This document shows, in pieces, positions 9,116 to 38,601 of a DNA stretch of 64,000 bases (position 1 is the first letter of the stretch; each line of letters starts with the position of its first letter). Both the position numbers and the translations under genes were made by a program. Source of the DNA: an uncultured Bacteroidales bacterium (lineage in GTDB: Bacteria; Bacteroidota; Bacteroidia; Bacteroidales; VadinHA17); the NCBI GenBank assembly GCA_963849945.1, contig CAWKJD010000021.1, positions 3,978 to 67,977 of the forward strand, read 5' to 3'. Below the pieces are notes generated by a model that had not been told where the DNA came from, searched no databases, and worked only from the letters and a program-made list of their open reading frames with translations.

Positions 9116-9640
9116 TTATTTCTTCTCACGAAAAGGTGTAGATACAAACATTAAGAATGGGTAGCAGCTATTCCATTTTTTATGAAGAATAGTTTTCTTC
9201 TTATAAGTTAATGTATCTGTTGTGATATTATCAATATATCCATACATATCAATTATTGATAAATTTCCTTGATCGCCTAATACTAAAGGTTTGTTTTCCA
9301 TTAATTCCTTGTTCATAAAAGAACATTTTCTTATCTGACTTTCAGGCAATTTAAAACATTGGATATTTAAACTATCTGCATACTTGGTAGTATTTTTGAG
9401 GATAATTTTTTTATCCATAACTTTATAAGTGCAAGTAATTCTAGTTTTTCGATATTGCTCATCTAAGTCACATAAAAACTGTTGTTCATATGTACATATA
9501 GTATCATTGACAAATTTTATTGATGTTACCTTATAGGGATCATCATGAATGAATGTCCTATCACTCAATAATAGCGTTCTCGAGCATGATTGACAGAAAC
9601 AAAATAGAGGAATAAGAATCAACACCTTTTTCATACACAA
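9116..9640 (-). CDS. candidate Rhs immunity protein, exported (signal peptide, possible lipoprotein)
   Basis: Starts 4 nt after the rhs stop codon. N-terminus MKKVLILIPLFCFCQSCS. The position is typical of a cognate immunity gene. Confidence 0.6.
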   Translation of the reverse strand: MCMKKVLILIPLFCFCQSCSRTLLLSDRTFIHDDPYKVTSIKFVNDTICTYEQQFLCDLDEQYRKTRITCTYKVMDKKIILKNTTKYADSLNIQCFKLPESQIRKCSFMNKELMENKPLVLGDQGNLSIIDMYGYIDNITTDTLTYKKKTILHKKWNSCYPFLMFVSTPFREKK

Positions 9641-9643
9641 TTT

Positions 9644-34701: not shown

Positions 34702-37700
34702 TTACTCTTCCAAATAATCTCCCTGGAACACGGTAATCGTTTTGGTAATACCTCCACCGCTGACAGTGATGGTGCCCGTCCTAGACCCTGAAAACAGCCT
34801 GGAACAATTCACGGTAATTGAAGAGGAATTACTTCCACTGGTCGGAGAAACACTTATCCAACTAAGGTTCTCCGTGACGGTCCAATTCACATTGGAAGAA
34901 ATTGTAACAGAACTGGAACCATAGGAAAGATTAAAATAGAGATGATCTGTGCTTAAATTGAGGAAGTTAGGACACTCAAAGATGACAGATATTGTGTGGT
35001 TAGAAATTACTCCGTTAAAGGTATAACTTGTCACAGCACCAACGGATACCCCGTCAACAAGTACATCGGCTATGGAACAGCCTGTGTCAGCAGTAAAGCT
35101 ATATGTTATGTCCGAACCATAGATAACATTAGTACTTCCAGAAGGGGTGATAGTACCATTGCCGGTCTTGCCGGCTGTAATCGTATATGTGCCTATAACC
35201 CTATCGTTAAACTCGTCTTGTATATGATAGGAATAATCCTTAATGAGATTATATTCATTATCCCGCACTGCACAAAGGCGACCGAAAGAATCATATTCAT
35301 AATATGTCGCCTTACCATTAGCATCTGTCACAGAAGAAATGCCATAAGGTAAATTATATGTATATGTTGTTACTAAAGAATTTGGAAGCAATTGCCTCAA
35401 TAGACTTAGGGAATCACGTAATTCATCTTCATCTGTCTTAGTATTTTCCGAATTTGATTTAGACATAATGTTTGATACCAATTGAGTAATTGATGCTGAC
35501 ATTTCCGAGTAAGAGAAACCCTCAATTTTGGCTATCGGTTGAGTTTGCTTATAACCCCAGATGTAAACTGTTGAGATATCATCAACTTTTTTAACCTCAA
35601 CGGGATTCCCATTTTCATCATAAACGTTTATAAAGACCTTGTCTTCCAAAGGATTTTCATCAAAGGACGACTGTATCTTTTGAGGTAATAGCTCTGAATT
35701 ATAAATCGTTCTTTGTGTTGACAATTTCTTCTGTGAAAGACCACCTTCGATAATTGTATCGTTATACTCAGGAAGAGTGAAGTAATTTCCTATATAACGT
35801 TCTGTCTGGACTGGTACAGACCATATATGTGACGAACTTAACAATTGATAATTGTTCACCTCAGTTTCGCTCAATCCGGTTATGGGAGCATGTGGAGGAT
35901 AATAATATTTTGTCTCATAGACTTTTTCAATATTGCTGGTTTTAATATAGATTTCTGTTGGTAGTCCAACTAAACTTCCATATCGAAACTTCTTTTTCGA
36001 TACCAACTTTCTGTAAGAAAAGTCATCAATACTATCTAAATGAATAGGATCAATATAATCTTTAGATATGATAGAATCAATATTGAACTTGTGAGAGAAT
36101 GTCCTATAAAGACCTAAATAAAGGCCGCCTGTTGTGGTCGAATTATCTTGCTCACAGCAGATATCAAATAATCTTCTGATGATCATATTTGTGACAGGTT
36201 TATTCGGTATTTCTTTATAAGTATAATCAACGCTTTGAATCTTATATAACTGATTATTATTCCCTCTTTCTATAAAGGTTTGATTTTCAAGTTTCGAATT
36301 GAACATATCAGAATTCTCTAATTCATTATCATATTGTTTGCCATCGTTCCCAAAATATGAGTATGGACCACTAGGTTCGACGATCTTGAATTTCTTCTGA
36401 ATGCCCCCATTTTCCAAGCTATCTCCTCCATAACTTACTGTAACATATCGATAAAGCCAGGCATTATCATTTGAAGGAAATAATGACTTTATGGTATTAG
36501 ATTGCAAGTTAGCTACTTCATAAGTGGTAACATATGAGTCCCATGACGATGTGGGGCAAATTGAAACAATTCTGCTGAGATAATAATAAGAGCCACTGCT
36601 TGGAATTGCGGAGGAAGATTCAGCACTTTCAAGGATATCTTTGGCTTGTTTGTAATAGTATCTTTTAATAATAGGCTCTGCAGAGGCAGAGGGATAATCA
36701 TAAACCCTTTTAATTCTGATCCCTAGGCCATTATTGGCCACATTACTCTCAGTTAAATAATCGAAAAAAGCATTAACATAAACAAAGCAAGGATCAGAAG
36801 TATTCTGGGAATTTGGATCCAATTCAAGGCTAACCCGATAAACGTGGTCTTTTTCAAAATTAAATAAGAAATCTGCACTTCGAAGTGTATCTCCTGGCAA
36901 AAGATTAAATGAACGGACGGTATCTGTTAAATATTCTAAGTCCTGTACCTTCACATATATTATATAGTGGTGATTTACATCTTCACTAGAGGTTACATTA
37001 ACATGTACATTGATTTGTTGATCTAAAATGTCATTATTTGTATTTCCATATTCATCAAGCTCTGGTGCAATAAAAACATTATCTTCCAGCTTTGTATCAG
37101 GAATCAAGCCCTGATAGCTACAGTAAGTTTCAAGAAATGCTCTGGAATTAGACTGATAAATTCCTGTTGAGGGGGCTTCATATTCAAAGTAAGTATATCC
37201 CCCAGTTGGATAATACAAAGTATCTAATGTTCCCTTAGAAGCATAGGTGAAATCCGGTTCCCGATCAGCCAGGTAACTATTTATTTCCTCAAAGTTTGTT
37301 GATATATTCTTGGGTAGTAAAGTTTGATTGTTTTTGCCATTAAAATAACCTAAATGATCTTGACTAAAAGCAAATCTGTCGGGTAATCCCCCCAGATCAT
37401 TATAGGCCATCATATAGGAATATGAGGCTGAACTTGTTGGATTATTGTTGAAAGTTGCTTTGGTAAGGAAAAAACGCTGATAGTCTGAATAGTATTCCAG
37501 ATCTACTTGTAAGAAAATATTTCCAATATCTATATTTTTTACCTTAATGTTTTCCACTATCCTTCTATATTGATAACTTGAGTCAGTAAGCGTAGATTGA
37601 AAATAAATACCTACATTAGATCTTGGTGACCAGATGCTGTATAAATATCGGCCATTTGTGATTTTGTTTAACAAAGTAGTCGACTCTAAATAATTCATGT

Positions 37701-38601
37701 CAGAGTAGGATTGCGAAAGATTAGGGCAATTTAACTCAGGAGGAGGTTCCTGATCATGTGCGTAAATTTTTGAGATATGCTGATAGGTCCCAAGCCTGTT
37801 AATATAATCACTTTCCGGGCTGTAGGAAAAAAAGATAGTGTCACCTTTGGGATGTACCATTGATGTTAAATAAAAGGCGGTAGTGGCACTCCTTTTTCCG
37901 GTTGGTGACTCGTAATTCATAATAGTAGTTTCTACATTATAATTCTCACCAAAATTGTATATAACCCCATCAGGATCCCTAATAAAAAAACCTTGTATCC
38001 CATTTTCATTTGTTGAACTTATTCTTATTTCAAGTTCATATTCATAGTTACTCAATACGGGCGTAAGAGTTGCATCGAGATAAAAACTCCCCGCAAATCC
38101 TGGCATAGAGAATTGAAAACCATCTAGTTCTGTGTCGCAATGAGAGCTCCGCTCAATAGAATTAAGCAATATTGTGCCATTGCCACCGTCTGATAAGTCT
38201 AGGGAATCAAGACCTACCTTATCATAAAACACCCGCTCAGCAGCTAGTTCATCAGGTAAGTCTTTTACGAACCTCGTAATAACCCCACCAGCGTGCAAAT
38301 TCCAGTTAATTCCTGTCCAACTGCACTGTTGGTCAACCTTTACTCCGTTTCCCACATAGTCCAAGCTTATAGGAACTGTCAAGTTACCTGCCACATAGTT
38401 AAAAATAGGAATTGTAGGACTAATCCTTCCTGAAGATTCGTTGATTGGAACGTTTCCGTACTTTGTCATTGCGTACGCCGTTGGAGATGGCATTATTATC
38501 GTATCCTGTGAATAGGAAATGTGACTAATGAATGCAAGAAGTAGAAGTAATCTTACTCTCTTGATGAACAATTCATTGTGGCCAATTGCTAATTTATTCA
38601 T
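34702..38601 (-). CDS. large secreted Rhs-partner protein, paralog of 13071..16547 (divergent body, near-identical last ~130 aa, more loosely conserved over the last ~210)
   Basis: Signal peptide LLLLLAFISHISYSQ. GRISPTIPIFNYVAGNLTVPISLDYVGNG...WTGINWNLHAGG. DANGKATYYEYDSFGRLCAV. Same Ig-like/BACON-like C-terminus. Confidence 0.65.
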   Translation of the reverse strand: MNKLAIGHNELFIKRVRLLLLLAFISHISYSQDTIIMPSPTAYAMTKYGNVPINESSGRISPTIPIFNYVAGNLTVPISLDYVGNGVKVDQQCSWTGINWNLHAGGVITRFVKDLPDELAAERVFYDKVGLDSLDLSDGGNGTILLNSIERSSHCDTELDGFQFSMPGFAGSFYLDATLTPVLSNYEYELEIRISSTNENGIQGFFIRDPDGVIYNFGENYNVETTIMNYESPTGKRSATTAFYLTSMVHPKGDTIFFSYSPESDYINRLGTYQHISKIYAHDQEPPPELNCPNLSQSYSDMNYLESTTLLNKITNGRYLYSIWSPRSNVGIYFQSTLTDSSYQYRRIVENIKVKNIDIGNIFLQVDLEYYSDYQRFFLTKATFNNNPTSSASYSYMMAYNDLGGLPDRFAFSQDHLGYFNGKNNQTLLPKNISTNFEEINSYLADREPDFTYASKGTLDTLYYPTGGYTYFEYEAPSTGIYQSNSRAFLETYCSYQGLIPDTKLEDNVFIAPELDEYGNTNNDILDQQINVHVNVTSSEDVNHHYIIYVKVQDLEYLTDTVRSFNLLPGDTLRSADFLFNFEKDHVYRVSLELDPNSQNTSDPCFVYVNAFFDYLTESNVANNGLGIRIKRVYDYPSASAEPIIKRYYYKQAKDILESAESSSAIPSSGSYYYLSRIVSICPTSSWDSYVTTYEVANLQSNTIKSLFPSNDNAWLYRYVTVSYGGDSLENGGIQKKFKIVEPSGPYSYFGNDGKQYDNELENSDMFNSKLENQTFIERGNNNQLYKIQSVDYTYKEIPNKPVTNMIIRRLFDICCEQDNSTTTGGLYLGLYRTFSHKFNIDSIISKDYIDPIHLDSIDDFSYRKLVSKKKFRYGSLVGLPTEIYIKTSNIEKVYETKYYYPPHAPITGLSETEVNNYQLLSSSHIWSVPVQTERYIGNYFTLPEYNDTIIEGGLSQKKLSTQRTIYNSELLPQKIQSSFDENPLEDKVFINVYDENGNPVEVKKVDDISTVYIWGYKQTQPIAKIEGFSYSEMSASITQLVSNIMSKSNSENTKTDEDELRDSLSLLRQLLPNSLVTTYTYNLPYGISSVTDANGKATYYEYDSFGRLCAVRDNEYNLIKDYSYHIQDEFNDRVIGTYTITAGKTGNGTITPSGSTNVIYGSDITYSFTADTGCSIADVLVDGVSVGAVTSYTFNGVISNHTISVIFECPNFLNLSTDHLYFNLSYGSSSVTISSNVNWTVTENLSWISVSPTSGSNSSSITVNCSRLFSGSRTGTITVSGGGITKTITVFQGDYLEE

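Follow-up and report, generated by a model that had tools for sequence, protein, structure and literature searches.

Paired TcB-like and TcC-like Rhs proteins with Sec signal peptides flank a type II secretion-like locus in an uncultured Bacteroidales bacterium

A stretch of 64,000 nucleotides (nt) from contig CAWKJD010000021.1 of an uncultured Bacteroidales bacterium (hereafter, the window) was analysed. Two minus-strand modules, A and B, lie on either side of a plus-strand type II secretion-like locus of 12 genes (19350–29568), and each is composed of a gene for a large protein (the partner), a gene for an RHS toxin and a small downstream open reading frame (ORF). The coordinates are collected in Table 1. 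An earlier description made from the sequence alone, here called the original prediction, had reported two copies of the pair of partner and RHS genes, and the corresponding minus-strand ORFs are present where they had been placed. It had likewise assigned signal peptides to the encoded proteins, and all four were found to carry a Sec signal peptide followed by Gln. The 19 nt gap that it gave between the two genes holds if the RHS protein begins at MKVK; with the alternative start MMTIMKVK, the interval from partner stop to RHS start is 7 nt.

In Pfam searches, the matches of each partner were to BACON and to a single RHS_repeat. Partner A was modelled with AlphaFold2 on the basis of 66 relatives, and the result was confident, with a predicted local distance difference test score (pLDDT) of 81.6 and a predicted TM-score (pTM) of 0.78. 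The model is composed of long beta-hairpins nearly throughout residues ~50 to ~980, with the Ig-like and BACON domains modelled poorly. The original prediction had recognized one clear YD repeat in the partners, a count that is superseded by the RHS-type beta-hairpin shell extending over ~930 residues of the model. This model was used to search the PDB with Foldseek. The top match was YenB (4igl_A; E 6e-22, TMq 0.41), and further hits were returned for TcdB2-TccC3 (6h6g and 4o9x; TMq 0.43) and for the SpvB N-terminal domain (6p0x_A; E 2e-6, TMt 0.45). Rhs proteins of type VI secretion systems (T6SS) and teneurins were also found with good E-values, at a TMq of just 0.07–0.17. As modelled, the partner is globally TcB-like, combining an SpvB-N-like fold with an RHS half-shell.

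The resemblance to SpvB and TcB that the original prediction had drawn from sequence motifs is therefore borne out in the fold (TcB chains and 6p0x) and not in the sequence. Membership of the partner in the SpvB/TcB families at the sequence level was rejected, with Pfam and NCBIfam (both partners), Pfam (20 relatives) and a profile search of PDB sequences all negative. Neither partner matches Pfam SpvB (PF03534) at E<=0.01, no FG-GAP, VCBS or TcdB_toxin_mid match was obtained in the partners, and none of the 20 relatives matches SpvB, TcdB_mid or FG-GAP at E<=1. The terminal YD repeat was the sole match of the partner-family profile to PDB sequences. When the families of partner and RHS protein were compared profile against profile, the one match was local and weak (probability 32%). 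The partner family, for which 12,663 clusters (50% identity) reach E<=1e-30, is without annotation, and some of its members carry DUF5977 at their variable C-terminus.

The partner shell is ~500 residues shorter than that of TcB (~930 versus ~1450 aa), a deficit corresponding roughly to the TcA-docking propeller plus a few repeats. In the secondary structure of the partner A model, the hairpins are long and a ~300-aa run of short blades is not seen. Given this difference in length and the missing FG-GAP/TcdB_mid match, the TcA-docking beta-propeller is probably absent from the modelled partner.

Each RHS protein contains DUF6443 (Pfam; residues 37–157 in RHS-A) and the Rhs_assc_core (NCBIfam TIGR03696), which in RHS-A spans residues 834–916 with E 1.6e-16 and ends in DPDG. 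Residues D872, R876, D879 and D889 of the DPxG core are invariant or almost so in a 56-sequence alignment, and the C-terminal core of RHS-A matches YenC2 by sequence. For the RHS-A model (pLDDT 74, with a disordered toxin end), the best Foldseek matches by TM-score were TcC chains (TMt 0.64–0.67), among them YenC2 (4igl_B, TMt 0.66) and TccC2 (6l7i_G, TMt 0.67). The likeness to TcC suggested by the original prediction is thus upheld, and at the level of the predicted fold the RHS protein is TcC-like. The elements that define a TcC/Rhs core are all found, namely an RHS shell, an Rhs-associated core (aspartyl protease, DPxG) and a variable toxin end.

An RHS/YD beta-hairpin shell with a C-terminal protease core is also seen in teneurins and in T6SS Rhs effectors (RhsA 7q97, Tse15 8uy4, Rhs1 7pq5). 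One alternative reading takes the modules for T6SS effectors whose secretion system is encoded elsewhere in the genome. The comparison is less close at the global level. The TMq of RHS-A to T6SS Rhs proteins is 0.14–0.29, versus 0.47–0.50 to the TcdB2-TccC3 fusion chains, and the TM-scores of T6SS Rhs proteins and teneurins to partner and RHS protein together span only 0.07–0.29. In T6SS Rhs proteins, and this sets them apart from the modules described here, the N-terminus itself plugs the shell, and delivery is by PAAR/VgrG. The module proteins carry Sec signal peptides but lack PAAR and VgrG-binding domains, and T6SS genes are found neither among the scanned window ORFs nor in related loci. 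Delivery by a T6SS is accordingly considered extremely improbable. In agreement with the original prediction, no PAAR, VgrG, Hcp, TssB/C or TcA domains were detected in the window ORFs scanned, a set comprising all but a few ORFs of at least 100 aa (7827–8162, 63215–63622 and 63226–63882).

The toxin end of RHS-A, CT-A (9647–10303), contains the motif HEFRH (HExxH). Pfam returned no match for CT-A, for the toxin end of RHS-B (CT-B) or for either small downstream ORF. From their position, these small ORFs are taken to encode candidate immunity proteins. The HExxH motif, together with the lipoprotein signal on the downstream ORF of module A, hints at a CT-A toxin acting in the periplasm. Features of polymorphic toxins are evident in the variable toxin ends, in an orphan cassette at the left edge of the window and in the relatives of CT-A, which are mainly short orphan cassettes without annotation.

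The pairing of partner and RHS genes recurs across Bacteroidota, in support of the original prediction. With a 20-sequence alignment, a single genome of each species was scanned for the partner, and the 38 loci obtained are distributed over Bacteroidales, Cytophagales, Sphingobacteriales, Chitinophagales and Flavobacteriales. A DUF6443-RHS gene lies downstream on the same strand in 30 of the 33 informative loci (five orders), and where loci were anchored on the RHS gene, the partner was immediately upstream in all three. In a metagenome assembly of an uncultured Bacteroides sp. (L012, 9974–16276), partner and RHS protein are encoded by a single ORF of 2101 codons in the order signal peptide, partner shell, linker SPSSG and QNYILARTY...YFDGLGRPVQ, with the junction at the mature N-terminal Gln of the RHS protein. 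This fusion point matches that predicted from the TcB-TcC topology and is therefore strong evidence that partner and RHS protein make one shell. BACON domains occur at the partner C-terminus in this window and at the RHS N-terminus in another locus (L087), which is consistent with a particle in which these ends lie side by side after assembly. We consider it highly probable that partner and RHS protein constitute a BC-like two-part capsule exported by Sec.

The modules themselves are related by a DNA duplication (10392–13698 versus 32023–35329; 91% identity) in which blocks of ~100% identity alternate with blocks of 62–79%. RHS-A and RHS-B are 90% identical up to residue 916, at the DPxG motif, and show no relation afterwards. 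The partners have 29% identity across their first ~260 aa and are almost the same over the last ~200 aa. The blocks of ~100% identity correspond to the end of the RHS shell and to the RHS N-terminus plus the partner C-terminus, so that the gene junction has been homogenised as a unit. The 62–79% block at 11276–11975 (RHS residues ~360–590) may mark a gene-conversion boundary or a part of the shell surface that has diversified.

Several repeats accompany the duplicated modules. A common element of 31–38 nt, TAAAACAAAACCCCAGTCGCCCAGGGTTCTG, with a short inverted repeat is found on the 3' side of each (9050–9086 and 30515–30552), and may be a terminator or a recombination boundary. Module B is flanked in its entirety by a direct repeat of ~165 nt (30338–30502 and 39213–39378; 85–90% identical), and a truncated transposase gene (rve_3, 29890–30312) lies just outside the left copy. 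Repeat and transposase remnant could be leftovers of an insertion or recombination event that put module B there; in a related locus (L125), however, the layout of ppk, amidase, module and secretion genes is the same.

By a simple hydropathy heuristic, a signal-peptide-like N-terminus followed by Gln is present in ~70–80% of the members of both families. As a rule, substrates of signal peptidase I in Bacteroidetes start with Gln, and the pattern seen here fits that rule. TcB and TcC are not known to carry signal peptides. On account of their signal peptides, partner and RHS protein are, unlike TcB and TcC, expected to be sent to the periplasm.

Since TcB and TcC chains are the best structural matches, the modules could also be read as ordinary Tc (ABC) toxins directed against eukaryotes, with TcA encoded elsewhere in the genome. 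We regard this as highly improbable. No TcA-type domain was detected in the scanned window ORFs or in the four largest non-RHS, non-fusion ORFs (2085–2501 codons) of 125 related loci, the largest ORFs across these loci encoding type IX secretion system (T9SS) adhesins or RHS proteins with Ig/PKD/BACON extensions. The shortened partner with its probable lack of a propeller and the Sec signal peptides on both subunits argue against it as well, as do the downstream ORFs of immunity type and the orphan toxin cassettes, which are characteristic of polymorphic toxins aimed at bacteria.

A second route to be weighed is the T9SS of Bacteroidota. It has been proposed for Apibacter Rhs proteins with SpvB/TcdB domains, the rhs genes of which adjoin genes for T9SS-sorted proteins (Steele and Moran 2021, PMC8125069), and in one related locus (L025) a T9SS adhesin is encoded upstream of the partner gene. 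T9SS cargo does occur in the present organism, since the product of 55195–56430 (+) combines PKD/SprB repeats with a type IX sorting domain (CHU_C); this protein also served as a positive control for the sorting-domain search. That search detected no Por_Secre_tail, CHU_C or TIGR04183 in either partner or RHS protein. Furthermore, it is the cleaved toxin that makes up the C-terminus of the RHS protein, and a BACON domain that of the partner. Exit of the Rhs toxins by the T9SS is on these grounds quite improbable.

The original prediction had left the delivery route of the toxins unexplained by known schemes. That view has to be revised, as the two modules enclose a complete type II secretion-like cluster that had been overlooked, and linkage of such clusters to such modules recurs in numerous further genomes. 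The Gsp core set (E, F, D, G, minor pseudopilins and an L/M-type platform) is judged to be present, with the roles of the peptidase and of GspC/K/M assigned from position. The ATPase scores 469 bits against GspE and 437 bits against PilB, both under the equivalog cut-offs. The name 'type II secretion-like' was chosen because the scores fall below these cut-offs and slightly above those of the pilus models. The same gene set in the same order (G, O, E, D, L/M/C-like, minor pseudopilins, F) occurs in Cytophaga hutchinsonii (chu_3191–3202) and Flavobacterium johnsoniae (Fjoh_0611–0622), and a 'putative T2SS' (type II secretion system) with undefined cargo has been noted in Pedobacter heparinus and Odoribacter splanchnicus also (PMC5553014). 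The sigma factor gene ahead of the locus is split by a frameshift in the window and is one ORF in the closest relatives (L043, L045 and L048).

Linkage of the modules to secretion genes was examined from both sides. Anchoring on the pseudopilin gave 80 metagenome loci, which reduce to 54 clusters at 95% identity, 28 of them informative by their flanking DNA. A partner gene is adjacent in 16 of these 28 (divergent from G in 10, and directly downstream of F on the same strand in 5), and a partner or RHS gene is present in 19. The partner often begins ~50–250 nt after F on the same strand. Conversely, secretion genes lie within 10 kb in 5 of 23 partner-anchored genome loci, from Prevotellaceae (two), Alistipes, Pedobacter and Niabella (four families). 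Two modules are placed among the secretion genes in Marinifilum fragile. L125 is syntenic with the window, with ppk, amidase, partner, RHS gene and then a convergent secretion cluster, and differs in its toxin end (Toxin-JAB1). For a genome of a few megabases, we estimate that random placement would put them within 10 kb of each other in well under 1% of cases. The linkage is seen in at least three gene arrangements and in several orders, a variety that argues against simple inherited synteny of module and secretion genes.

Alternative architectures were noted among these loci. DUF6443-RHS proteins with long N-terminal Ig/PKD/BACON/MAM arrays are encoded beside secretion loci in L060 (13591–20403; partner gene not detected nearby), L087 (3–6257, minus strand) and L124 (18498–22415), which suggests that adhesion domains have shifted onto the RHS protein. 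In one Prevotellaceae metagenome assembly (L001/L006, 6840–9818; L007) there are two distinct secretion loci, both accompanied by a divergent module of their own, and at least one of these modules has two tandem partner-like genes before the RHS gene.

What the computations show are the genes present, the folds, the signal peptides, the recurrent pairing, the fusion found in nature and the linkage to secretion loci; from these, a scheme for the modules can be proposed. Partner and RHS protein would cross the inner membrane separately by Sec, with cleavable signal peptides and Gln at the mature end. In the periplasm, the B-like and C-like half-shells would join end to end, the C-terminal repeats of the partner packing against the mature N-terminus of the RHS protein, to give a closed shell that holds the variable toxin. 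The Rhs aspartyl-protease core would then cut the toxin loose at DPxG. Type II systems carry folded periplasmic proteins over the outer membrane, and the adjacent machine could move either the folded particle or both halves in this way. Surface glycans are the probable ligands of the partner's variable C-terminus, which is Ig/BACON here and DUF5977 in some relatives, and the products of the small downstream ORFs would confer immunity and so protect kin. As these ORFs are read as encoding immunity proteins, the targets are probably other bacteria.

On balance, we lean towards this full chain, comprising Sec export, a periplasmic TcA-independent BC-type capsule, and export by the linked machine as an antibacterial polymorphic toxin. 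Within it, we infer the periplasmic assembly, the export by this machine, the target and the entry of the toxin without TcA. The broader proposal, that the type II secretion-like machine of Bacteroidota has a TcA-independent, Sec-exported two-part Rhs capsule as its main and perhaps dedicated cargo, is put forward tentatively. If true, it would define a distinct and widespread pathway for delivery of antibacterial polymorphic toxins, beside the T5, T6, T7 and T9-linked systems, in which the variable glycan-binding end of the partner would be the targeting module that replaces TcA.

Several points weigh against the full chain. Export by the type II secretion-like machine is argued from gene linkage, and 9 of the 28 secretion loci have no partner or RHS gene by tblastn, some of them adjoining other large proteins; in 18 of the 23 partner loci, no secretion genes lie within 10 kb. 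The TM-scores of 0.4–0.5 are moderate. ATPase, secretin and platform are below the NCBIfam equivalog cut-offs, with pilus models nearly equal, and to judge by these scores the machine could build a pilus rather than secrete. The frameshift in the linked sigma factor of this genome could be a sequencing error or could mark an inactivated regulator. A complete BC-type shell measures ~10 nm and exceeds the lumen that GspD-type secretins usually have, so that export of the assembled particle is mechanically uncertain. Finally, the related cluster of C. hutchinsonii affects cellulose use (PMC5553014), and for this reason the machine may not be dedicated to Rhs cargo.

It is also conceivable that the BC-like capsule is real and that the cluster next to it serves general secretion of other cargo or builds a fibre resembling a type IV pilus. 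In that case, the capsule would have a different fate, such as exit via outer-membrane vesicles or lysis, or a stay in the periplasm or on the surface, and the linkage would reflect island history or co-regulation. Release by lysis-type mechanisms is the rule for canonical Tc toxins and counts in favour of this reading, as do the similar scores of ATPase and secretin against pilus and T2SS models, the partner loci that lack nearby secretion genes and the tie of the C. hutchinsonii cluster to cellulose use. Against it stand the adjacency of partner and secretion genes, which exceeds the chance estimate in several arrangements and orders, the frequent same-strand placement of the partner shortly after F, and the finding that the secretion locus has no gene for a PilT retraction ATPase. 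We judge this explanation unlikely, with an appreciable chance of being correct.

With Sec export and a linked secretion machine as the favoured reading, the modules can be compared with known systems. They resemble the Tc BC subcomplex (YenB-YenC2, 4igl; TcdB2-TccC3, 4o9x and 6h6g) in having adjacent genes for two RHS half-shells, a B-like protein that opens with an SpvB-N-like region, a C-like protein that ends in an aspartyl-protease core plus hypervariable toxin, and natural B-C fusions, and in that TcB and TcC chains are their best global structural matches. They differ from it in that no TcA gene, detectable beta-propeller or Pfam SpvB/TcdB_mid signature accompanies them, while both subunits have Sec signals, the partner has a C-terminal Ig/BACON or DUF5977 region, immunity-type ORFs and orphan toxin cassettes are present, and the modules are linked to a type II secretion-like locus in place of lysis cassettes.

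Precedents for a link between type II secretion and Rhs proteins come chiefly from proteobacteria. The Xanthomonas perforans RHS bacteriocin Bcn-A reaches the supernatant, and mutation of the secretin gene xpsD abolishes its activity (PMC7259588). In Xanthomonas and Ralstonia, families of Rhs proteins have been linked to gspG (bioRxiv 10.1101/2025.05.08.652813). Bcn-A is an RHS toxin with an immunity gene that works outside the T6SS, a combination that the modules described here would share. It differs in being proteobacterial and a single 1398-aa RHS protein with accessory ORFs instead of a TcB-like/TcC-like pair. Within Bacteroidota, a clone-specific island of Flavobacterium psychrophilum CC-ST10 has been described as having T2SS genes and exported proteins resembling the Yersinia ABC toxin (PMC5808330), a link that consists of one sentence on one clonal complex. 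A full-text literature search returned no other T2SS-Rhs link in Bacteroidota, nothing on the partner family or DUF6443, and no account of the phylum-wide three-way linkage, of the natural fusion or of a TcA-less Sec-exported BC pair. The linkage of partner, RHS protein and secretion genes across Bacteroidota thus points to a largely undescribed Rhs export route.

Rhs toxins that carry signal peptides are very frequent among Bacteroidota, gut Bacteroidales among them. As an exit from the cell, the T6SS is unsuited to them, and the T9SS has been suggested by gene proximity only. In the large unannotated partner family, these toxins would have their missing 'B half', with both proteins behaving as one unit. 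The proposed scheme addresses both the cargo of the Bacteroidota type II secretion-like cluster and the deployment of Rhs toxins. It also raises the structural questions of how a BC-type capsule functions without the TcA injection device and how a secretin would pass so large a particle.

Table 1. Coordinates of the features of modules A and B, the secretion locus and the orphan rhs fragment in the window
Feature	Position	Strand	Remarks
Orphan rhs 3' fragment	1–254	-	core end and first ~40 aa of CT-A; 99% identical to 10185–10438; stop codons upstream
Candidate immunity protein A	9116–9640	-	3–12 nt 3' of RHS-A; lipoprotein-type signal MKKVLILIPLFCFCQSC; role from position
RHS-A, TcC-like half-capsule	9644–13051	-	1135 aa from MKVKQF; signal peptide, DUF6443, RHS shell, Rhs_assc_core, CT-A
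Partner A, TcB-like half-capsule	13071–16547	-	1158 aa; signal peptide, ~930-aa RHS-type shell, C-terminal Ig-like and BACON
Extracytoplasmic function (ECF)-type sigma factor	18305–18679 and 18669–18905	+	Sigma70_r2 and r4/GerE matches; frameshift-split
Putative anti-sigma factor	18868–19353	+	between sigma factor and secretion genes
Major pseudopilin, GspG-like	19350–19763	+	N_methyl, GspG and PilA matches; 59–89% identical across loci
Membrane protein in prepilin-peptidase position	19765–20286	+	role inferred from position and comparison with CHU_3197
Secretion ATPase, GspE-like	20222–21700	+	T2SSE, E 3e-125
Outer-membrane secretin	21690–23648	+	Secretin, E 1e-36
PilM/N- or GspL-like gene	23653–24867	+	PilN match
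Three small conserved ORFs	24864–26299	+	conserved in other loci
Conserved 428-aa ORF	26274–27560	+	conserved in other loci
Two N-methyl pilins (minor)	27548–27904, 27917–28423	+	N_methyl matches
Inner-membrane platform protein, GspF-like	28420–29568	+	T2SSF, E 6e-45; GspF best NCBIfam match
Candidate immunity protein B	30983–31294	-	~103 aa from internal ATG, without signal peptide; role from position
RHS-B	31284–34682	-	1132 aa; toxin end CT-B (31287–31934) unlike CT-A
Partner B, second TcB-like half-capsule	34702–38601	-	1299 aa; ~1080 aa N-terminal divergent from partner A

The surroundings of the modules are of two kinds. Integrases, a primase-like gene and a helix-turn-helix (HTH) gene occupy the left side, and the right side holds housekeeping genes and the one T9SS cargo protein. 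Between the orphan rhs fragment and module A lie ORF6N (2735–3283), two tyrosine recombinases (3374–5225), the primase-like gene (5343–7868) and the HTH gene (8190–8573), an arrangement that suggests an integrative element inserted at, or carrying, an rhs 3' end. The G+C content is 0.35–0.44 over modules and secretion locus (8001–40000) versus 0.44–0.50 over the housekeeping region (40001–64000). The region of low G+C is compatible with an acquired island, and its synteny with L125 argues for some age. No tRNA gene was found that would mark the border of an island, and a scan for sigma-70 promoters and terminators, ill-suited to Bacteroidota, was uninformative. Between partner A and the secretion locus, a thiamine pyrophosphokinase pseudogene (16797–17375, plus strand) is present as two frame-shifted fragments.

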